This document shows positions 50-20,048 of a stretch of DNA of 40,921 nt, one piece after another. How positions within the stretch are numbered: position 1 is the stretch's first letter; each line of letters starts with the position of its first letter. A program made the position numbers and the translations under genes. The DNA comes from a virus, in UHGV virus genome UHGV-0093931. One strand, given 5' to 3'. A model generated the notes under the pieces. It was given only the letters and a program-made list of their open reading frames with translations, had not been told where the DNA came from and ran no database searches.

Positions 50-1363
50 TTAACTTACTGATTTTAATAATCCTCCCGTACTGCTCTCGTGGCTATGGGG
101 CATCAATGGGGCAAAATCTGCCAGCTTCTGATTCAGCATTGCGATCTGCTCTGCGCTGCTGTCAGCCATCCATGCACCGTAAACATTGAACACCATCTGC
201 GCGCTCGCATGCCCCATCTGACTGGCAATAAAACTCGGGTTTGCACCAGCAGATAATGACCAGCACGCATAGGTATGTCGTGACTGGTACGCCTTTCTGT
301 GTCTGATCCCCGCGCGCTTAAGTGCCGCTTCCCATGAGTCGCCTACTGAATCGACCCGGTAGATAAATCCGACCTGCTTACTGCGTCTGACCACATGCGG
401 GTTAAAGACAAATGTACACTCATGGTTCACCGAACGGCCGTACTCACGTAACTGAACTTCAATGTGATGTTTCCTGCCCAGCCTTGTCATCTCAGCCTGA
501 TTTTTCAGGATGCTGATTGCGGGCTGGATAAGATGCACCACTCGATCTGTGCTTGCCTCGGTTTTCGGTAGAGTGAACTCACCAAGTTTCGTATAATTAC
601 GCCTGACGGTAATTGTTCCCGCCTTCAGGTCGATATCTTCCCAGGCCAGGGAGACCAGTTCCCCGTGACGCATTCCTGTGTACACTGCTAATGACCACAG
701 GTTTTTCGTCTGCTGATGCCGGCATGCATCTATCAGGCGAATAAATTCATCACGAGACAGAGGATCTGGTTCTGCCCTGGCTTTTTTCAGAGGCTTAATT
801 CCCTCGAATGGGTTCACCTCTAAATAACCGTGATCTGCAGCAAACTGAAACATTCCGGCCATTGTCGTCATGTAATAGTTCACAGTAACAACGCTTCGCC
901 CTTTTGCCGGAGCTTTGTTTTTCGTCGGATTCTGGTAACCAGTTAGCAAATCTTTCCTAAGATACAGCAATTCCTCTTTGGTTACTGCTGACACCAGGCG
1001 ATTACCTCCGATCCTCGGCACCATATTCCTTGCGACAGACTCATAGCGATTGAATGCGTTCGCGCAGATTTCCATCCGTTTCAGATCCAGCCATTTTTCT
1101 TCAAGTTCTTTCACTGTAATGTCTTTTTTACTTACACCAAAAGCCTTGAGGTTAGGGGAGTCAGGAAACTGGGTTGCATAATCAAAGGTTCCTGTGCGGA
1201 TGGCAAAACATACTGATGTCCGCAGTTCCCCAGCTATCTTCCTGTTCTTAGCGGTGTCAGGGACACCGAGACTTTCCCTGACACGCTTACCTTTAAAATT
1301 AAACCAGATGCGTAATGTGCCACCGTGGTTTTCGACGCCTGTTGGATATGTGACTTTATCCAT
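50..1363 (-). CDS. int: tyrosine-type phage integrase
   Basis: 437-aa ORF at the left end of the prophage; C-terminal region has the His/Tyr signature of tyrosine recombinases (...RHTYACW..., ...VYGAWM...); GGAGG RBS about 8 nt upstream of the ATG at 1361-1363. Confidence 0.9.
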   Translation of the reverse strand: MDKVTYPTGVENHGGTLRIWFNFKGKRVRESLGVPDTAKNRKIAGELRTSVCFAIRTGTFDYATQFPDSPNLKAFGVSKKDITVKELEEKWLDLKRMEICANAFNRYESVARNMVPRIGGNRLVSAVTKEELLYLRKDLLTGYQNPTKNKAPAKGRSVVTVNYYMTTMAGMFQFAADHGYLEVNPFEGIKPLKKARAEPDPLSRDEFIRLIDACRHQQTKNLWSLAVYTGMRHGELVSLAWEDIDLKAGTITVRRNYTKLGEFTLPKTEASTDRVVHLIQPAISILKNQAEMTRLGRKHHIEVQLREYGRSVNHECTFVFNPHVVRRSKQVGFIYRVDSVGDSWEAALKRAGIRHRKAYQSRHTYACWSLSAGANPSFIASQMGHASAQMVFNVYGAWMADSSAEQIAMLNQKLADFAPLMPHSHESSTGGLLKSVS

Positions 1364-7381: not shown

Positions 7382-8008
7382 TTAAAGCTCGTACTGAACG
7401 CCTTTGACAACGCCGATGATCAGGCAATTACCGTTAATTGAAATGTTTGGATAGCGTGGATTTAAGGGAACTAAGAACTTTTGAGGCCCATCGATGACAA
7501 GTTTTTTTACAGTAGCCTCGTTTGTCCCATCAAGCCTGGCTACGACTATCTTTCCATGAAGTGGCTCTGCATCTGGATCTACTATGACTGTTGCCCCTTC
7601 AGGGATTGTCGGGAGGCCATTAGGGTTTGTCATCGAATCACCTTTAACCTCCAATGCAAAGGAGCTATCCCCTATGCGGAGTGATGTCTCTATCCACTTA
7701 TCTACTTCGCTGAAAACTTCTGCTGCTTTACATTCTGTAAACTGTCCAGCCTGAACCCAGGATATCACCGGAATCCTTCGCATCTTGGTTATCAGATTGC
7801 CTTCAAATTCAGTGCCATAAAGTATGTAATCAATTGATGTGTTGAAATACTTTGCAAGTTTCGCAAGTGACTCGCCTCCAGGCACATTAACGTCTTTTTC
7901 CCAATACCCAACCGCCACATCACTAACACCGCAGAACTTACCCAGTTCTTTCTGCGAGGTTTTGGTTATGCGCCTGAGAGCTTTGATGCGCTGACCGACA
8001 GTTTCCAT
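7382..8008 (-). CDS. cI: CI-type repressor (XRE-family HTH with LexA-like S24 peptidase domain)
   Basis: 208 aa; N-terminal HTH (...TSQKELGKFCGVSDVAVGYWE...) and C-terminal autocleavage-type domain; divergent from a cro-like gene. Confidence 0.9.
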   Translation of the reverse strand: METVGQRIKALRRITKTSQKELGKFCGVSDVAVGYWEKDVNVPGGESLAKLAKYFNTSIDYILYGTEFEGNLITKMRRIPVISWVQAGQFTECKAAEVFSEVDKWIETSLRIGDSSFALEVKGDSMTNPNGLPTIPEGATVIVDPDAEPLHGKIVVARLDGTNEATVKKLVIDGPQKFLVPLNPRYPNISINGNCLIIGVVKGVQYEL

Positions 8009-10977: not shown

Positions 10978-12904
10978 GATTATCGTTGATAACTTTGCTG
11001 GTGGCGGTGGTGCATCAACGGGTATTGAACTGGCGATCGGACGCAGCGTGGATATTGCGATCAACCACGACGAAAACGCCATTGCGATGCACAAGACGAA
11101 CCACCCTGACACACTGCATTACTGTGAATCCGTATTTGACGTGGATCCGGTAGCCGCCACCGGCGGCAATCCTGTTGGCCTGGCATGGTTTAGCCCGGAC
11201 TGCCGACACTTCTCAAAGGCCAAAGGCGCAAAGCCTGTGAAAAAAGAGATACGCGGTCTGGCCTGGATCGTTCTGCGTTGGGCACTGGCGAAGCGACCGC
11301 GCGTGATGATGCTGGAGAACGTGGAAGAGTTTAAAACGTGGGGACCGCTGCTGGCCGATGAAATGCGTCCAGACCCTGCCCGCACTGGCGAAACATTCAA
11401 TGCTTTTGTCGGCATGCTTTCCACTGGCATTCCTGCCGATCACCCGGCACTGGCGGAGGTCTGCGAATTTCTTGCTATTGATCCTGGCAGCACGCAGGCC
11501 AAACAGCTGGTGGAAGGGCTTGGATATGATGTTGATTATCGCGAACTGCGCGCGTGTGATTACGGCGCGCCGACGATCCGCAAACGCTTCTTCATGGTTA
11601 TGCGCTGCGATGGTTGCCCTATTCAGTGGCCTGTTGTAACCCATGGGGATCCCAAGTCACTGGAGGTGCAGAGCGGCAGGCTGATGCCATGGCGTACCGC
11701 TGCGGAATGTATCGACTGGAATGTTCCGGCTCTGTCCATCTTCGACCGCAAAAAACCGCTGGCAGAGAACACTCTGAAGCGGATCGCACGCGGCATACAG
11801 CGCTTTGTTATCGAAAGTGCGTCGCCGTTTATCGTGAAGTGCAACCACACGAGCTCAAAAAATGCGTATGACGCTTTTCGCGGACAGTCACTGAATGAGC
11901 CATTACAGACCATTACTAAAAAACTCGGCTACGCGTTAGCCGTTCCACACCTTACAAAATTCCGCACTGGCGCAACCGGGCAGCCCGTTACCGAACCTGT
12001 TCCGACGGTAACCGCTGGCACGTCAAAACGCCCGGGCGGGAACGGGCATGCTCTCGGGATTGTTGAGGCTGCATTGACACCATTCCTGGCGGGTAATGGT
12101 GGTAGTGAATACCAGGCTAAACCGCGCCCGCTGAATAAACCTGCTCATACCATTCTGAAGCAATCCCGAGCCTGTCTTGTTGCGCCAGTGATAGCCCGCC
12201 AGTTTGGGGCCAGCGTCGGCCACCGTGCAGACGAACCGAGCGCAACCATCACCGCTGGTGGTGGCGGTAAATCTCAACTGGTAACGCCTACGCTGATTCA
12301 GATGGGTTATGGCGAACGACCTGGACAAGAACCGCGTGTGCTGCGACTGGATAACCCGCTGGGGACCGTTACTGCAGGCGGAAATAAATTTGCGACGGTG
12401 AGCGCATTCCTGGCGAAACACTACGGCGGTAACTATACGGGGCCGGGTGTCAGTATGGATGAACCCGCGCATTCAGTGACCACTGTCGACCATCATGCGG
12501 TAGTTGCCTCTCATCTGGTGAAACTGCGTGGAACATGCCGCGACGGGCAACGCCTTGATGTGCCAATGCCAACAATCACTGCTGGTGGCCAACACGTGGG
12601 TGAGGTACGCACATTTCTCGAGACGTATTGCGGGGAAAGTGACGATGAATGGCTGGTAACGATCGATGGGGTTAAATACCAGATCGTTGATATCGGAATG
12701 CGCATGTTGCAGCCGCATGAACTCTACAAAGCGCAGGGCTTCCCGGATGGTTACGTTATTGATCAGGACTACCGTGGAAATCGCTATGCAAAAGATAAGC
12801 AGGTAGCCCGCTGCGGTAATGCGGTACCACCACCATTCGCCCGGGCGCTGGTTGAGGCAAATCTTCCGGAACTGTGTGCAGTGCAACAGCAGGAGGTGGC
12901 ATGA
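10970..12904 (+). CDS. DNA (cytosine-5)-methyltransferase with large variable region
   Basis: 644 aa; motif I FAGGGG, ENV motif (MLENVEEF) and C-terminal ...RCGNAVPP... (motif X); the catalytic Cys is in an atypical ...SPDCRHFS... context; long insert between conserved blocks. Confidence 0.8.
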   Translation: MREIIVDNFAGGGGASTGIELAIGRSVDIAINHDENAIAMHKTNHPDTLHYCESVFDVDPVAATGGNPVGLAWFSPDCRHFSKAKGAKPVKKEIRGLAWIVLRWALAKRPRVMMLENVEEFKTWGPLLADEMRPDPARTGETFNAFVGMLSTGIPADHPALAEVCEFLAIDPGSTQAKQLVEGLGYDVDYRELRACDYGAPTIRKRFFMVMRCDGCPIQWPVVTHGDPKSLEVQSGRLMPWRTAAECIDWNVPALSIFDRKKPLAENTLKRIARGIQRFVIESASPFIVKCNHTSSKNAYDAFRGQSLNEPLQTITKKLGYALAVPHLTKFRTGATGQPVTEPVPTVTAGTSKRPGGNGHALGIVEAALTPFLAGNGGSEYQAKPRPLNKPAHTILKQSRACLVAPVIARQFGASVGHRADEPSATITAGGGGKSQLVTPTLIQMGYGERPGQEPRVLRLDNPLGTVTAGGNKFATVSAFLAKHYGGNYTGPGVSMDEPAHSVTTVDHHAVVASHLVKLRGTCRDGQRLDVPMPTITAGGQHVGEVRTFLETYCGESDDEWLVTIDGVKYQIVDIGMRMLQPHELYKAQGFPDGYVIDQDYRGNRYAKDKQVARCGNAVPPPFARALVEANLPELCAVQQQEVA

Positions 12905-13287
12905 AACTTGTGCTCCCGTTCCCTCCGAGCGTGAACACTTACTGGCGCGCCCCTAACAAGGGGCCGCTGGCCGGTCGTCACCTCATTAGCGCTGATGGTC
13001 GTAAATACCAGAGCGCTGCCTGCGTGGCGATCATTGAGCAATTACGACGTCTCCCGAAGCCATCGACTGAACTGGCAGCGGTAGAAATCACTCTGTACCC
13101 GCCGGATGCGCGCCGTCGGGATATCGATAATTACAACAAAGCCCTGTTTGACGCGCTGACGCATGCGGGTGTCTGGGAAGACGACAGCCAGATTAAGCGC
13201 ATGCTGGTGGAATGGGGACCCGTTGTGCCGAAAGGTCGGGTAGAGATAACGATCAGCAGATATGAACCGGCGGGTGCAGCCGCCTGA
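12901..13287 (+). CDS. rusA: RusA-family Holliday junction resolvase
   Basis: MKLVLPFPPSVNTYW... N-terminus and overall length typical of RusA; ATG at 12901 overlaps the upstream stop (ATGA). Confidence 0.85.
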   Translation: MKLVLPFPPSVNTYWRAPNKGPLAGRHLISADGRKYQSAACVAIIEQLRRLPKPSTELAAVEITLYPPDARRRDIDNYNKALFDALTHAGVWEDDSQIKRMLVEWGPVVPKGRVEITISRYEPAGAAA

Positions 13288-13300
13288 TATGGAGAAAAGT

Positions 13301-13987
13301 ATGAGCCAGTTAATCGTGAATGGTGTAGTAACAATGTCCAGCCGTGATATTGCGGATCTGGTTCAAAGTAAACACAGTGACGTGAAACGCTCGGCTGAGC
13401 GTCTTGTTGCTGCGGGAATTTTAACCGCGCCGTTGGCGCAGTTCGATTTTGAGCATAACGGTAATGTGTACCAGGAGTATCGTTTTAACAAACGCGACTC
13501 TCTGGTGATTGTTGCCAGACTGTCTCCTGAATTTACCGCCGCGGTCGTCGATCGCTGGCAGGAACTGGAAGAAGGGCAGAGTGTCAGTGTTCCCCGCTCA
13601 TTGCCGGAAGCGCTTCGCCTGGCTGCTGATTTAGCCGAGCAGAAAGAGCAACTGACCATCCAGCTGGCAGCCGCGGCGCCAAAAGTGGAGTTTGTTGATC
13701 GTTATTGCTCTGCAAAAGGCTCCATGTCATTCCGGCAGGTAGCCAAATTGCTCAACGCAAAAGAAACTGAGTTTCGTCTGTTCCTTATTGAACGCAATAT
13801 CCTGTATCGCCTCGGCGGCACACTTACCCCCATGGCGCAGCACATTTCCGCGGGAAGATTTGAAGTTAAGACGGGAACATCGAGCACATCCAATCACGCA
13901 TTCAGCCAGACGCGTTTCACTGCCAGGGGAGTACGCTGGATTGGTGGTTTGTGGGCTGAACATATTGCAGGGGGGCAGGCGGCGTGA
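13301..13987 (+). CDS. Rha-family phage regulatory protein / antirepressor-like
   Basis: N-terminal ...SSRDIADLVQSKHSDVKRSAERL... typical of Rha-type domains; start taken at MSQLIV (13301). Confidence 0.7.
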   Translation: MSQLIVNGVVTMSSRDIADLVQSKHSDVKRSAERLVAAGILTAPLAQFDFEHNGNVYQEYRFNKRDSLVIVARLSPEFTAAVVDRWQELEEGQSVSVPRSLPEALRLAADLAEQKEQLTIQLAAAAPKVEFVDRYCSAKGSMSFRQVAKLLNAKETEFRLFLIERNILYRLGGTLTPMAQHISAGRFEVKTGTSSTSNHAFSQTRFTARGVRWIGGLWAEHIAGGQAA

Positions 13988-14979: not shown

Positions 14980-15000
14980 GTGTATGGAGCGCAAAGAAGC

Positions 15001-15690
15001 ATGAATCAACAAGACCTGAATTTTGTCAGAATAGAATTGCGCCGCGCGCTACCTGACCTCTCTGGGGGAACAAAAGGGCAGCTTGAGGCTTTCAGTGAAC
15101 ACCCACCAGCAGATAAAAATGCCACCCCGCGCCGTGGAATTCATCTCGTCGAACTCGAAGGAGATAAGGGGCCACGCTTTGTTAACTCGCTTTCCGCGCC
15201 ACTGTATGTGCTGGAAACACGCAGCCGCCGTAGGCCAATGCCGCCGATAAAAGATGCGGAATTTGAGTCAGCGCCGTGGCGTAGGGCAGTGTCCGCGCTT
15301 AGTGGATACCAGCAGGCCTGGTTGCGGTACTGTTACGGTTTTGACCTTAGCTATAAGCACCAGGTGATGATGTGTGAATACGTCTGGAAAACTTATCAGA
15401 AATGCCTGGGTGATAATTCCCTTCAGGAGCGCGTAGTAAAGAAACTGATTGGCCTGGTATGGCTGGCAGGGCAGGAAATTGCCGCAACCAGAAATAATGA
15501 AACCTATAAAGACTATGCTGGTGCAGCGTTGGCCCGCATGGTTAGCGTTGACCGTTCGACATGGTTGCGTGTCTATTCAGGGCACTGGGCTGGGTTAAAG
15601 GCCGCTTTTACCCAGCTTGATGAATCTGCGCTGGCCATGGCTCTTGAATACTATGAGGAAGAAGACGCCCTCAAAGTGGCAGAAATGTGA
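15001..15690 (+). CDS. putative late-gene antiterminator (Q-like)
   Basis: Last gene of the early-right operon, directly upstream of a promoter/terminator module and the lysis cassette; family call by position and memory. Confidence 0.5.
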   Translation: MNQQDLNFVRIELRRALPDLSGGTKGQLEAFSEHPPADKNATPRRGIHLVELEGDKGPRFVNSLSAPLYVLETRSRRRPMPPIKDAEFESAPWRRAVSALSGYQQAWLRYCYGFDLSYKHQVMMCEYVWKTYQKCLGDNSLQERVVKKLIGLVWLAGQEIAATRNNETYKDYAGAALARMVSVDRSTWLRVYSGHWAGLKAAFTQLDESALAMALEYYEEEDALKVAEM

Positions 15691-15782
15691 AGTAAATTTC
15701 ACTATCTCCTTCAAACGCGCTTGCAAAATGCAACAAAATAAGCCATATTTGAAGCATATTTGATATGTTGCCAAAGTTCTAT

Positions 15783-15810
15783 AAACCCGCCTGTGAGCGG
15801 GTTTTTCTTT
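15783..15810 (+). terminator. intrinsic terminator (tR'-like)
   Basis: AAACCCGC-ctgtga-GCGGGTTT stem-loop followed by TTTTCTTT. Confidence 0.7.
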
Positions 15811-15847
15811 AACCTCTTTTGGCACTCAATCTACGTCAAAATCAATA

Positions 15848-15856
15848 TGTTATAAT
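15848..15856 (+). promoter_or_regulatory. extended -10 promoter element (TGtTATAAT)
   Basis: TGn-TATAAT at 15848-15856, about 35 nt upstream of the 15892 ORF; could be the late promoter or a moron promoter. Confidence 0.45.
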
Positions 15857-15891
15857 TCCGCTGGTCAAAACAAGCCACCGGAGGCAGTGCT

Positions 15892-16131
15892 ATGAAAATC
15901 ACATCTGTACATTTCGAAATTCTGCGTCGAGCAGATGCACTTGGTCCACGTGAAACAATTCAATCTTCTGATCTTCCTCACATTCCAGCGAAAACGGTAG
16001 ATTTTGCCATTTCAGATCTTGCTGATTTGGGATTGGTAAATGCTGTTCAAAGTAAGTCTGATGAAGGTGGGTGGATAGCGATTGAAATCACGTCAAAGGG
16101 TGATCGCTATTTAAATGAACTAGAGGCTTAA
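15892..16131 (+). CDS. hypothetical small protein (moron between Q and lysis genes)
   Basis: 79-aa ORF with GGAGG RBS, AT-richer than neighbours, bracketed by its own promoter-like element and terminator. Confidence 0.55.
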   Translation: MKITSVHFEILRRADALGPRETIQSSDLPHIPAKTVDFAISDLADLGLVNAVQSKSDEGGWIAIEITSKGDRYLNELEA

Positions 16132-16296: not shown

Positions 16297-16575
16297 ATGA
16301 CCAGAATGAGCACCATTTACAGCAGACTTTCATATGGAACAGGAACCACGCTGACCGGCTGCGGTGTATCAGCGAAGGCATACGCCGAAACAGCTAAAAC
16401 AGCAAAAGAGGTGTCCTGGATGTTGGCCGACAGAATTGCAGGGTTAAGCCTGAGCGACTGGGCAATTATTGTCGGTATCGCATGCACCGTTATTACCTGT
16501 GCAGTGAACTGGTATTTCCGCTGGAAAGAACGGGAGGATCGTCGCAATGGCTATGCCACAAAAGCTGAAGAATAA
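16297..16575 (+). CDS. holin, pinholin-like (phage 21 S-like) with dual-start motif
   Basis: 92 aa; begins MTRM (two Met codons separated by a basic residue); weakly hydrophobic first segment, clear TMD (WAIIVGIACTVITCAVNWYF) and charged tail (...REDRR...) resembling the S21 pinholin; sits immediately before a SAR endolysin. Confidence 0.7.
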   Translation: MTRMSTIYSRLSYGTGTTLTGCGVSAKAYAETAKTAKEVSWMLADRIAGLSLSDWAIIVGIACTVITCAVNWYFRWKEREDRRNGYATKAEE

Positions 16576-17095
16576 ACTGAGCGCAGCTGTCGTTGGGTTA
16601 ATTCTTGCCGGGGCTTCCGCACCCGTAATTCTCGATCAGTTTCTGGATGAGAAAGAGGGTAACAGCACAACAGCGTACAAGGACGGCTCTGGTATATGGA
16701 CCATTTGTCGTGGCGCAACGATGGTTGATGGTAAGCCAGTAGTTCAGGGCATGAAGCTGCCTGCTGAGAAATGCGCTCAGGTAAATGCTATTGAACGCGA
16801 TAAAGCGCTGGCGTGGGTTGACCGAAATATCAAAGTACCACTGACGGAACCACAGAAAGCGGGTATCGCTTCTTTCTGCCCATATAACATCGGCCCCGGA
16901 AAATGTTTCCCGTCTACGTTCTATAAGCGAATTAATGCTGGCGACCGTAAAGGAGCCTGTGAAGCGATCCGCTGGTGGATAAAAGACGGTGGCCGCGATT
17001 GTCGCCTGACCAAAGGGCAGAAGAATGGTTGTTATGGGCAGGTAGAAAGGCGAGACCAGGAAAGCGCGCTGGCTTGCTGGGGGATAGACCAGTGA
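16547..17095 (+). CDS. SAR endolysin (lysozyme, T4/P1-lysozyme-like)
   Basis: N-terminal signal-anchor-release-like segment (...LSAAVVGLILAGASAPVIL...) followed by a catalytic E...D...T region (EGNSTTAYKDGSGIWTICRG). Confidence 0.85.
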   Translation: MAMPQKLKNKLSAAVVGLILAGASAPVILDQFLDEKEGNSTTAYKDGSGIWTICRGATMVDGKPVVQGMKLPAEKCAQVNAIERDKALAWVDRNIKVPLTEPQKAGIASFCPYNIGPGKCFPSTFYKRINAGDRKGACEAIRWWIKDGGRDCRLTKGQKNGCYGQVERRDQESALACWGIDQ

Positions 17096-17616
17096 ACAGA
17101 AGCCTCGTTATTGTTGGGATGGCAGCAATCATCTTCATCGCGGTGCTCTGTGTACTACTGGCGCGCAGCAATGCAGCGTTGACCACGTCAGAGAGTGACA
17201 ACCGGATACTGCGCAACGATAACGCACTGCAGGCAACGGTGATAACTACCCAGGCGTTCAACTTCAACCGGTTTAACCAGGTAGCGGAGAACGCCAGTCG
17301 CCTGAACTCGCTGATTGATGCCGGAACCGAAAAGACCGTTATCGAATACCGGGAGATTCTTCGCCGTGAAAAAACCTGTGATCTGCCTGTTCCTGCTAAT
17401 GTCGCTGGTGGGCTGCTCAACTACGCGAACCGTTTACGTGCCAGCGCAATGCACCCCGATACCGGGGACACTGACGCAGCCGATGATAGTACCGCTGCCG
17501 CCAGCTCAATAACCTATTGTCAGGCCGTTCTCTGGATTCAATCATTACTTGCAGAGATAGAGAAGGGTAACAACCAACTGGCAGGGATTAGGGATATTGA
17601 GGAAGGGAGACATTAG
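17092..17616 (+). CDS. Rz-like i-spanin
   Basis: GTG at 17092 overlaps the endolysin stop; N-terminal TMD (SLVIVGMAAIIFIAVLCVLLA) then a long periplasmic region; contains an embedded +1-frame lipoprotein ORF. Confidence 0.7.
   Translation: MNRSLVIVGMAAIIFIAVLCVLLARSNAALTTSESDNRILRNDNALQATVITTQAFNFNRFNQVAENASRLNSLIDAGTEKTVIEYREILRREKTCDLPVPANVAGGLLNYANRLRASAMHPDTGDTDAADDSTAAASSITYCQAVLWIQSLLAEIEKGNNQLAGIRDIEEGRH
17366..17512 (+). CDS. Rz1-like o-spanin (lipoprotein embedded in Rz)
   Basis: GTG at 17366 with GGAG about 10 nt upstream; signal peptide plus lipobox (...LLMSLVGC...) and proline-rich mature part (PIPGTLTQPMIVPLPPAQ), entirely inside Rz in another frame. Confidence 0.6.
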   Translation: MKKPVICLFLLMSLVGCSTTRTVYVPAQCTPIPGTLTQPMIVPLPPAQ

Positions 17617-17652
17617 AAATAGGGCCACTTAAAGGTAGCCCAAACGATTCGA

Positions 17653-17910
17653 TTAAGATTTAGAAAGTAGGGCTACAACTCTTTTATGTAACTCTTCTGC
17701 ATAACCTTCATTTACTGGGTTTTCAAACTCCACAGGCGGCGCTGATTTAAAAGCTTTATCGTAGCTATCGCCAAGCATACCAGGCTGTTTGGCAAGGGAG
17801 TTCCAAGCTGTGGATATCGTGGTAATAGCAATTCTTGCTGCATGCTGATCTAAAAGTAGCTCTTCAATAGTTTTTTCGAGTTCATCAATGCGTTTCTGCA
17901 GATCTGTCAT
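17653..17910 (-). CDS. hypothetical small protein, divergent from the glycosyltransferase cluster
   Basis: 85-aa ORF on the opposite strand to all flanking late genes, in an AT-rich island (about 17620-18020). Confidence 0.45.
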   Translation of the reverse strand: MTDLQKRIDELEKTIEELLLDQHAARIAITTISTAWNSLAKQPGMLGDSYDKAFKSAPPVEFENPVNEGYAEELHKRVVALLSKS

Positions 17911-18018
17911 GAAATTACCTCTAAAGGGTTGTGTAAATGAGCTGCGATTATATCATTTTGGTGTCAGCAAAAGTGATGTCCAGATAGGAGTCCTGAACCA
18001 TTTTATTTTGGAGAAATT

Positions 18019-19476
18019 ATGCAGGTCACTATCGATGGTGTTCCATACGCGCCTGTCTGCAATTCGGTGTCACGCATAGGAATAGCAATCACAACGCATA
18101 ATCGCCCTGACGTATTGAAGCGGACACTGGCGCAGCATCATCAATTTTTACCGTCCGGCGCGCTCGTGGTTGTCATAGATGATGGTTCAAAACCTGCCGC
18201 AGTCGTTCCCGACGGCGTGCAGCTGCTTCGCAATGAAACATCCCTCGGCATTGTGGCCTCGAAAAACCGAAGCCTCGAAGCGCTGGTGGACGCCGGATGT
18301 GAGCATCTCTTCCTGTGGGATGATGACGCATGGCCGGTTGCCGATAACTGGCACCTGCCTTACATCGAATCACCTGAGTCACACCTGGCTTACCAGTTTC
18401 TCGATCTGGCTGGTCCACGAAAGATAAACGATATGACCGTCCTGCACCAGGATGATAAGCATATCGCTTACACCGGGCAGCGCGGTGTGATGCTGTACTA
18501 CCACCGCAGCGCCATTGAGAAGGTTGGCGGATTCGATCCGGTATACGGTCGAGGCATGTATGAGCATCCTGATTTGGCGCTTCGGATTTATAACGCTGGC
18601 TTAACGTCCTGGGCGTTTGCTGATGTGGTTGGCTCTGAAAAGCTGATTCACTCAATGGATGAATACGAAGAGGGCGCGCGCAGCATACCGAGGCCTGAAC
18701 GTGAAGCGCTCTATAAAAAGAACGCTGTAATTTACGGGCAGCGCCGGGATTCAGGATATACAGGCTATGCCGAATATCGATCTCAGCGCGACGTGGTAAT
18801 CACAACGTTGCTTACCAGCCAGCCAGACCCGCAGCGCGGTACGAAAATGGCGGCCGTATCAGACATGCTGACCAGGTGGGCTGCCTCGCTTCGGAATTGT
18901 GGCCGTATTGCGCTGGTGGATGAGCTGCAGACGGCATCGGCAGACGTTGAGTTGTATCGCGTCCCTGACGTGAAGATGAATGTCTACTTCCGGCGCTGGC
19001 TGCATATCTGGCAGCACCTGCGCGATCACCCTGAATACCGGTTCGTCTGGTGTACCGATGGTACCGATGTCGAAATGCTCCGCGCACCGTGGGAAGAAAT
19101 GCAGCCCGGGAATGTTTACGTCGGTTCTGAACCGAAGATCTACGCCGACACCTGGGCGAAACAGAATCATCCTGAGCGTATCTATCAGGAATTCATTGAA
19201 GCGCACCGCGGCGATGTGATGCTTAATGCTGGTCTTCTGGGAGGCACCCGCGCTGATGTGATGGCGTTCGCTCATGGCATCATCCGTCTTTACTACCGGA
19301 TCGAGAGTTATCGTTTCTGGAAGAAAGAACAGGCTGGCGCAGCGGTGGGTGACATGCTGGCGTTCGGTATCGTTGCGCAGTCATTCGCTGACAGGTTGGT
19401 CACCGGCCCTCTGGTACATACCGTTTTCAAAACTGATGGTATCGGTAAGGAGGCAGCATGGTGGAAACACAAGTGA
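18019..19476 (+). CDS. two-domain glycosyltransferase (GT2-like GT-A domain plus a second nucleotide-sugar-transferase-like domain)
   Basis: 485 aa; N-terminus ...IGIAITTHNRPDVLKRTL...VVVIDDGS...LFLWDDDAW... is a GT-A/GT2 signature with DxD; C-terminal half has ...VWCTDGTDVEM...NAGLLGG... resembling another GT-A-type domain; no predicted TM segments. Confidence 0.7.
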   Translation: MQVTIDGVPYAPVCNSVSRIGIAITTHNRPDVLKRTLAQHHQFLPSGALVVVIDDGSKPAAVVPDGVQLLRNETSLGIVASKNRSLEALVDAGCEHLFLWDDDAWPVADNWHLPYIESPESHLAYQFLDLAGPRKINDMTVLHQDDKHIAYTGQRGVMLYYHRSAIEKVGGFDPVYGRGMYEHPDLALRIYNAGLTSWAFADVVGSEKLIHSMDEYEEGARSIPRPEREALYKKNAVIYGQRRDSGYTGYAEYRSQRDVVITTLLTSQPDPQRGTKMAAVSDMLTRWAASLRNCGRIALVDELQTASADVELYRVPDVKMNVYFRRWLHIWQHLRDHPEYRFVWCTDGTDVEMLRAPWEEMQPGNVYVGSEPKIYADTWAKQNHPERIYQEFIEAHRGDVMLNAGLLGGTRADVMAFAHGIIRLYYRIESYRFWKKEQAGAAVGDMLAFGIVAQSFADRLVTGPLVHTVFKTDGIGKEAAWWKHK

Positions 19477-20048
19477 AGTTTGTTGTGGTTGGCCATCATT
19501 CCCGTTACGCCTCAGCTGCATTGCTGGCTGGTGAACTTGGCGCGCACCTTCTTATCGATGAAGGGAATCACGGGGCTAACTGGAATCACCGGCGCGCTAT
19601 CGAATGGGCTGCTGAGCAGCCTTGCCGGGTGGTGGTACTGGAAGACGACGCGCTGCCTGTACGTGGATTCAGAGACAAGCTTACGGGCTGGCTGGCTCGT
19701 TTCCCTGGCGACATGCTTAGTTTTTATCTGGGCACCGGGCGGCCACCGCAATACCAAATGCAGATAGCTGAACGCCTGATTAATGCGGATAAGGTGAGGT
19801 CTGACTTCATTATGCTGCAACGCCTGATACATGGCGTGTGCTACAGCATACCGCCTCAAAGCATCAGCCGTGTGCTGTCTCAATGGGACGGCAGTAAGCC
19901 TGCCGATTATGCCGTGGGCGATGCTTATGGTGGCGTTGTCGTCTATCCCTGTTGGTCGCTGGTGGACCACGCAGACGGCGAACCGGTTGAGCGTCACCCT
20001 GACTCAGCACCACGAACAGAACGCCGCCGGGCGTGGAGGTTAGCCTGA
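19458..20048 (+). CDS. glycosyltransferase family 25-like protein
   Basis: 196 aa; ...FVVVGHHSRYAS...LIDEGNHG...RVVVLEDDALP... matches the GT25 (LPS/LOS glycosyltransferase) motif order as recalled; strong AAGGAGG RBS; start overlaps the upstream gene. Confidence 0.55.
   Translation: MVETQVKFVVVGHHSRYASAALLAGELGAHLLIDEGNHGANWNHRRAIEWAAEQPCRVVVLEDDALPVRGFRDKLTGWLARFPGDMLSFYLGTGRPPQYQMQIAERLINADKVRSDFIMLQRLIHGVCYSIPPQSISRVLSQWDGSKPADYAVGDAYGGVVVYPCWSLVDHADGEPVERHPDSAPRTERRRAWRLA

Follow-up and report, generated by a model that had tools for sequence, protein, structure and literature searches.

The viral genome UHGV-0093931, a stretch of 40,921 nucleotides analysed here in full and hereafter called the window, is a lambdoid, HK97-like prophage of the Citrobacter freundii complex. 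Antisense to its late operon lies a small gene (17653..17910, minus strand) encoding 85 amino acids (aa) whose product, judged from its sequence, is a full-length homolog of the Pid protein of phages P22 and BTP1. This pid-like gene is probably a moron of the Pid family, an autonomous antisense cassette whose product most likely derepresses a host operon, with the repressor DgoR as the prime candidate target. Morons, in the sense of Hendrix and Juhala, are extra genes that possess their own promoter and terminator and whose composition is unlike that of their neighbours. The open reading frame (ORF) had been called on the minus strand in a first-pass annotation, which took it for a moron or a local regulator that would be expressed independently of late transcription. 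Its limits are confirmed, the first in-frame ATG being the start, and the proposed nature of the gene is supported by the homology to P22 Pid, a conserved predicted promoter, a 3' hairpin, a deviant base composition and the absence of the gene from related phages. New in the present analysis are the recognition that Pid has a family obeying a strict positional rule, a confident three-helix structure model for this family, and the finding that most of its lineages possess a consensus extended -10 element and a short 5' untranslated region (5'UTR), unlike the architecture known from P22.

The Pid family and its predicted structure

The 86-aa Pid protein of P22 has been verified by mass spectrometry (PMC3573128). 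Aligned with it by BLASTP, the 85-aa protein of the window displays 40% identity and 64% positives over 83 aa without a single gap (pairwise E 5e-23). A tblastn search of 2.3 Gb of phage DNA encountered P22-like Salmonella phages only (39.8% identity, 98% query coverage, E 6e-8), and the matched locus of BTP1 is annotated as "Pid regulatory protein". The pid-like protein also matches over its full length a PHROG of unknown function, phrog_16546 (E 9.6e-19, positions 1-84 of 86 in the profile), to which P22 Pid itself belongs. When 1.84 billion representative proteins were searched with a profile, only 28 matches were returned, about two dozen of them 80-104 aa long, and P22 Pid aligns with the latter from end to end. 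The named members originate from Trabulsiella, Klebsiella/Raoultella (438 contigs), Enterobacter, Kosakonia, Brenneria, Buttiauxella, Citrobacter and Pseudescherichia, and all of them carry the label hypothetical. A locus search using an alignment of 8 sequences relied on narrow patterns and for this reason recovered one locus only among the genome contigs. The Pid relatives form a small family confined to the Enterobacterales, with identities down to 30%. Pid was termed an ORFan in papers of 2013 (PMC3573128) and 2022 (PMC8835761), a label contradicted by the occurrence of its family in several genera. A common "hypothetical protein" could therefore be named Pid-like in genome annotation.

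The exact 85-aa protein bears the annotation "hypothetical protein [Citrobacter freundii complex]"; it is found on 192 contigs, which correspond to 314 assembly-collection blocks, and relatives of 69-88% identity are encountered in Pseudescherichia, Enterobacter and metagenomes. According to the Nei-Gojobori method, dN/dS ranges from 0.05 to 0.16 in comparisons with homologs of 69-99% identity, third-position changes being dominant. With Pseudescherichia vulneris, for instance, 24 differences are synonymous and 11 non-synonymous, distributed as 9, 1 and 25 over codon positions 1, 2 and 3. This substitution pattern argues that the ORF is a genuine protein-coding gene under strong purifying selection. 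The short length of the ORF, and the lack of a corresponding family in NCBIfam and in a Pfam scan at E up to 0.01, would fit a chance ORF in an AT-rich spacer, devoid of any gene. We give practically no credence to this explanation, which is effectively refuted by the Pid homology and by dN/dS values far below 1: the homologous P22 protein, matched over its full length, has been detected by mass spectrometry (PMC3573128), the ORF is conserved in at least nine genera and its product yields a confident structure model. The only signal of the Pfam scan, a sub-threshold coiled-coil match of 18 residues to HSBP1, and a further coiled-coil match to PbeC in PADLOC (14.5 bits) were both rejected as non-specific. 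No nucleotide match to the cassette was obtained in the complete genomes of Escherichia coli.

The pid-like protein is predicted to be soluble, acidic and all-helical; no signal peptide and no membrane segment were recognized in its sequence. Homology and structure searches had been advised in the first-pass annotation, and the former led to P22 Pid. Computed with AlphaFold2 (AF2) from 25 diverse family members, a confident structure model reaches a predicted local distance difference test (pLDDT) of 91 and a predicted template modelling score (pTM) of 0.70, and it supersedes an earlier run with 7 close sequences (pLDDT 65). It is composed of a long helix (residues 3-40) followed by two shorter ones (45-56 and 70-82). 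A Foldseek search against the viral structures of BFVD returned nothing below E = 1.

The arrangement of the helices recalls the AroQ fold of chorismate mutases (EcCM, 1ecm), with a marginal structural score, and raises the question of whether the gene encodes an AroQ-type (class II) chorismate mutase-like enzyme and would be an auxiliary metabolic gene. We consider such an activity most improbable. Comparison of the family profile with EcCM by hhalign gave a probability of 1.5%, no chorismate mutase was matched by the profile among PDB sequences at E up to 1, and no chorismate mutase family emerged from the Pfam scan. R26 is the only basic residue that could take the part of a catalytic Arg or Lys, yet other members have S, H, Y, E, Q or T at this position, and the invariant residues are hydrophobic. 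Membership in AroQ (Pfam CM_2) was consequently rejected at the sequence level, there being neither a match nor a constant basic position. The modelled resemblance amounts to a topological hint, possibly of a helical dimer, and is not taken as a sign of membership.

Organization and mobility of the cassette

The predicted promoter of the pid-like gene is a perfect sigma-70 extended -10 element, TGATATAAT (17947..17955, minus strand), composed of TATAAT at 17952..17947 and TG at 17955..17954 and ending 36 nt before the ATG. The window contains 2 perfect TGNTATAAT motifs, for a chance expectation of 0.66. No good -35 element accompanies the promoter. The core TGnTAnnnT is found at -44 to -48 from the ATG in 7/7 diverged lineages, in spite of their differing non-coding DNA around it. 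A simple promoter scanner proposed two further elements on the minus strand, GTGACC-18-TAAAAT and TGGACA-16-CAAAAT, which were discarded since they fall within shuffle expectation and do not correspond to the conserved element. Placing the transcription start according to the -10 element, the predicted 5'UTR would extend over about 30 nt (17911..17940, minus strand) and comprises an AGAGG Shine-Dalgarno sequence (17922..17918, minus strand) located 7 nt before the ATG. The Shine-Dalgarno sequence, its spacing and the start codon are conserved among the lineages. The operators of the cI/cro region are of the CTAAG-N4-CTTAG type; the promoter region of the pid-like gene contains no palindromes or inverted repeats and has no word of at least 8 nt in common with the cI/cro operator region. 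In silico, the gene thus appears to possess its own sigma-70 promoter, independent of the late promoter.

Just upstream of this promoter, a weak terminator-like hairpin (17978-17998, minus strand; 7 bp with 3 G-C pairs) is followed by ATCACTTTTG. This hairpin, which P. vulneris has not conserved, could shield the cassette against antisense transcription coming from upstream or be due to chance.

At the other end of the gene, a terminator scan identified an intrinsic-terminator-like hairpin with its T-run (17612..17641, minus strand). The hairpin GGGCTAC-CTTTAA-GTGGCCC (17641..17622) begins 11 nt past the pid-like stop codon, forms a 7-bp stem with 5 G-C pairs and is followed by TATTTCTAAT. Folded as RNA, it reaches -12.1 kcal/mol (z -2.7), and the plus strand folds more weakly (-9.2 kcal/mol) and lacks the T-run. 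A hairpin occurs at the same place in every lineage: two loci, L015 and L013, carry the compensated stems GAGCCAC/GTGGCTC and the Enterobacter lineage displays a different hairpin. These features are those expected of a 3' Rho-independent terminator, as predicted from the sequence.

Since the cassette runs against the late operon and converges on the spanin gene Rz, and since its hairpin lies only 5 nt from the Rz stop codon, the functional product could conceivably be an antisense RNA modulating the late transcript around the Rz and glycosyltransferase genes by interference or pairing. This is very unlikely in our opinion. Purifying selection operates on the amino acids, with the low dN/dS and dominant third-position changes reported above, the Shine-Dalgarno sequence and start codon are conserved, and a frameshift at the start codon of pid in P22 abolished both the protein and the phenotype (PMC3573128). 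The transcript is moreover predicted to end before Rz, no Rfam family matched at the ORF, and the ORF is intact in a copy relocated beside xis/int. A protein-coding cassette remains the preferred reading.

This cassette occupies an AT-rich insert of 39.8% GC delimited by the Rz stop and the glycosyltransferase start (17617..18018). The ORF itself has a GC content of 40.7%, compared with 53.4% for Rz, 54.5% for the glycosyltransferase gene and 51.5% for the window. The AT-rich flanks emphasized in the first-pass annotation therefore belong to a real island, of which the ORF is part and not only its flanks. The pid-like gene is separated by 36 bp from the stop codon of Rz (17616), with which it is convergent, and by 108 bp from the start of the first glycosyltransferase gene (18019), with which it is head-to-head; its description as divergently transcribed is correct for the glycosyltransferase genes and incorrect for Rz. 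It is indeed the sole gene interrupting the late operon: between 15.7 and 40.9 kb, no other minus-strand ORF of at least 75 aa lies in a gap between plus-strand genes, the remaining ones being all contained within longer plus-strand ORFs.

Conservation in related prophages, also raised in the first-pass annotation, is observed for both position and sequence in many prophages. The distance between the spanin gene and the pid-like gene, on opposite strands, is 33-47 bp in Citrobacter, Pseudescherichia, Enterobacter and metagenome loci. This position beside the spanin gene is kept although Q types, early regions and packaging modules vary, the latter being either of the HK97 type, with a small terminase and an HNH gene, or of the lambda type (Nu1/GpA). 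Among viral contigs, 22, with P22 and BTP1 among them, have the gene in antisense orientation behind the lysis cassette. Family members in viral contigs with recognisable neighbours have this arrangement; on the other side, the neighbours are packaging-side genes where they can be identified. Family members are thus almost always found antisense directly after the lysis cassette. Presence in this slot is facultative: phages HK542, mEp390 and ECP1 lack a pid-like gene despite glycosyltransferase genes 83-92% identical to those of the window and carry instead co-oriented KilA-N, HNH or hypothetical genes. Their homology to the window starts only at 18014-18125.

The copy relocated beside xis/int, and not after a lysis cassette, is that of locus L013 (contig DRR294049_323, 5819-6180), which is 74% identical. 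Its homology to the window covers exactly 17657-17959, a segment made up of ORF, 5'UTR and -10 element, so that the extended -10 constitutes the 5' limit of homology between the two loci. The L013 copy has an intact ORF, its own TGTTATAAT promoter and an 8-bp hairpin, which suggests that promoter, ORF and terminator move as a unit. With its own promoter and terminator, its deviant composition and its facultative presence, the cassette has at the sequence level the attributes of a moron.

Expression, host target and competing explanations

Published work on Pid provides a framework for the function of the cassette. In P22, pid is a moron located between orf25 and orf80 of the phage's late region (PMC3573128). 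It is transcribed opposite to its neighbours from its own promoter and is followed by a 3' Rho-independent terminator (PMC3573128, PMC8835761), which is needed for mRNA stability (PMC8835761). The protein, and not the RNA, derepresses dgoRKAT, and this effect is abolished by extra DgoR (PMC3573128). Deletion of pid had no noticeable effect on the lytic or lysogenic growth of P22 and its biological role is still unclear (PMC3573128). The P22 promoter has an eroded -10 element, AATCCT, and initiates transcription 174 nt ahead of the ATG; lysogens in which a single mutation has improved the -10 element derepress dgo constitutively (PMC8835761). In BTP1 lysogens, pid ranks among the five most expressed prophage genes (PMC7067206). 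Few phage proteins besides Pid are known to activate a particular host operon, and Pid serves as a molecular marker of the carrier (pseudolysogenic) state of P22.

The pid-like gene and P22 pid resemble each other in several respects. Both occupy a variable slot of the moron type, located between the lysis cassette and the gene of the small terminase, both run against the late operon, and both are equipped with a promoter of their own and with a hairpin terminator at the 3' end. The two proteins, of 85 and 86 aa, are homologous over their full length without gaps. The phage is HK97-like and its host a Citrobacter, unlike P22, and the upstream neighbours are glycosyltransferase and HNH genes in place of orf80 and orf59c. 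Residue T84 of P22 Pid, the site of the loss-of-function mutation T84M, is a K in the pid-like protein. The TGnTAnnnT core is absent from P22, whose upstream region does not align with that of the window. The weak promoter and the 174-nt 5'UTR are a feature of the P22 locus and not of the protein family, most lineages of which have a promoter that looks much stronger than that of P22.

In the mechanism we propose, host sigma-70 RNA polymerase would start about 7 nt downstream of TGATATAAT and produce a transcript of about 320 nt ending at the hairpin just before Rz. Because no sequence resembling a repressor operator is present, this promoter should be active in the lysogen, uncoupled from Q-dependent late transcription and from the prophage repressor. 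As it is consensus and not eroded, expression is probably constitutive and not limited to a carrier state of high copy number; lysogens probably have the gene switched on, given that one-base improvements of the -10 element suffice to bring about that state in P22. Our inference that the repressed prophage expresses the gene draws on its consensus promoter, on the absence of any operator-like sequence and on the expression of pid in BTP1 lysogens (PMC7067206). During lytic growth, the convergent antiterminated late transcription would run over the pid-like gene. The 85-aa three-helix protein would act as Pid does, by interfering with a host transcriptional repressor and thereby derepressing a host operon. 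The prime candidate target would be the GntR/FadR-family repressor DgoR of the D-galactonate operon, which shows 84-96% conservation in Enterobacter, Salmonella and Klebsiella, genera that also host members of the family. Some lysogens are accordingly predicted to derepress a host pathway constitutively.

Several observations weigh against this interpretation. The minus-strand transcript of this copy is known as a sequence prediction, as is its promoter, and the promoter-like consensus matches of the region are not in excess (3, for 1.6 +/- 1.4 in shuffles). The T-run of the hairpin is weak (TATTTCT), weaker than that of P22. The architecture also departs from the P22 model, in which the promoter is eroded and the 5'UTR measures 174 nt, compared with a consensus TGATATAAT and about 30 nt here, and in which rha and orf25 are intercalated between Rz and pid, compared with a gene abutting Rz at 36 bp. 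Regarding the target, the pid-like protein is only 40% identical to Pid and the residues invariant in the family belong mostly to the hydrophobic core, so that conservation of the target is unreadable from the sequence. In a sample of cluster members, screened by cluster names, no DgoR of Citrobacter came up, and in the literature searched we found no published account of how Pid acts on DgoR or of direct binding between the two.

At 40% identity, the target of the pid-like protein may indeed differ from that of Pid. The main competitor, which we judge unlikely while according it appreciable weight, is that this Pid-family protein performs another job than dgo derepression, either on a different host regulator or protein or in the phage itself, where carrier-state maintenance, superinfection exclusion and defence come to mind. 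Besides the modest identity and the sample of cluster members in which no Citrobacter DgoR came up, the family diverges down to 30% identity while the DgoR sequence hardly varies from host to host, a contrast that would agree with a diversification of targets. The growth of P22 is not noticeably affected by deletion of pid (PMC3573128), and the slot following the lysis cassette commonly holds unrelated lysogenic-conversion genes. On the other hand, no defence family was matched, the only PADLOC signal being the 14.5-bit coiled-coil, the protein has neither signal peptide nor membrane segment, and derepression of dgo is the only experimentally known activity in the family. Derepression of a host operon, with DgoR as candidate, is therefore the reading we retain.

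Lambda bor is an example of such a lysogenic-conversion gene in the same slot. It is located on the opposite strand 31 bp after Rz, compared with 36 bp for the pid-like gene, and each of the two is a small accessory gene lying antisense within the late genes. Lambda bor is expressed in lysogens and its product is an outer-membrane lipoprotein giving serum resistance, whereas the pid-like protein, devoid of a signal peptide, is predicted as a soluble helical protein. No sequence similarity was found between the two proteins.

A broader scenario can be envisaged, which at present seems to us rather doubtful. Pid would be the founder of an Enterobacterales-wide family of three-helix, possibly AroQ-like dimeric proteins, spread by mobile cassettes and acting as anti-repressors of host metabolic regulators, with individual lineages maybe directed at different GntR/FadR-type targets; in the window, the gene, owing to its consensus promoter, would effect a constitutive lysogenic conversion of carbon metabolism and would not be a marker of the carrier state. 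Whatever its targets, the family offers comparative material for finding the functional surface of Pid.

Surroundings in the window and in related prophages

The prophage begins with an integrase gene (50-1363, minus strand), followed by a cI-like repressor gene (7382-8008, minus strand) and a Q antiterminator gene (14980-15690). The lysis cassette comprises the holin, lysozyme and Rz genes (16297-17616), the last of which, the Rz-like spanin gene (17092..17616, plus strand), is the one convergent with the pid-like gene. Its assignment relies on the 86-90% identity of the window DNA from 17400 on to genes of HK225 and mEp237 that are annotated as Rz-like spanins and is also backed by the gene calls in two near-identical loci (L019 and L017).

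Outside the cassette, on the plus strand, follow two glycosyltransferase genes (18019-19476 and 19458-20048), which belong to phrog_1579 (E 2e-246) and phrog_854 (E 9e-72), and then HNH endonuclease, small and large terminase, portal, protease and capsid genes. The product of the first glycosyltransferase gene is 92% identical to the glycosyltransferase of HK542. These genes are common to the Hendrixvirinae phages HK542, ECP1 and mEp390 and to Cronobacter phage ENT39118 (83-92% identity), and they match 568 mycobacteriophage records at <60% identity.

The second perfect TGNTATAAT of the window (15848-15856, plus strand) is situated just downstream of Q and 36 nt upstream of a 79-aa ORF (15892-16131) belonging to phrog_32916, of unknown function. 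Motif and ORF lie in a gap of 41-42% GC extending from Q to the holin gene. They are preceded by a hairpin resembling a Trp leader (15744-15810), which is sub-threshold (25 bits for a gathering score of 41). The region 15744-16131 is probably either a late-promoter/terminator region or a second, co-oriented moron.

The interval between the antiterminator and the holin gene also varies among prophages with a pid-like gene. Two Enterobacter prophages (L007 and L008, 7769-9846) carry between Q and holin an opposite-strand pair of NA37 and RelA_SpoT genes, which looks like another moron or defence-type insert. Three Citrobacter prophages with an identical lysis/pid-like/glycosyltransferase cassette (L009, L017 and L020; 7785-9516 / 11785-13514) encode a 430-aa DUF6575 protein and a 146-aa protein at the place taken by the 79-aa ORF in the window. 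On the L013 contig, finally, genes of type VI secretion (Hcp and Tlde1) are present as well.
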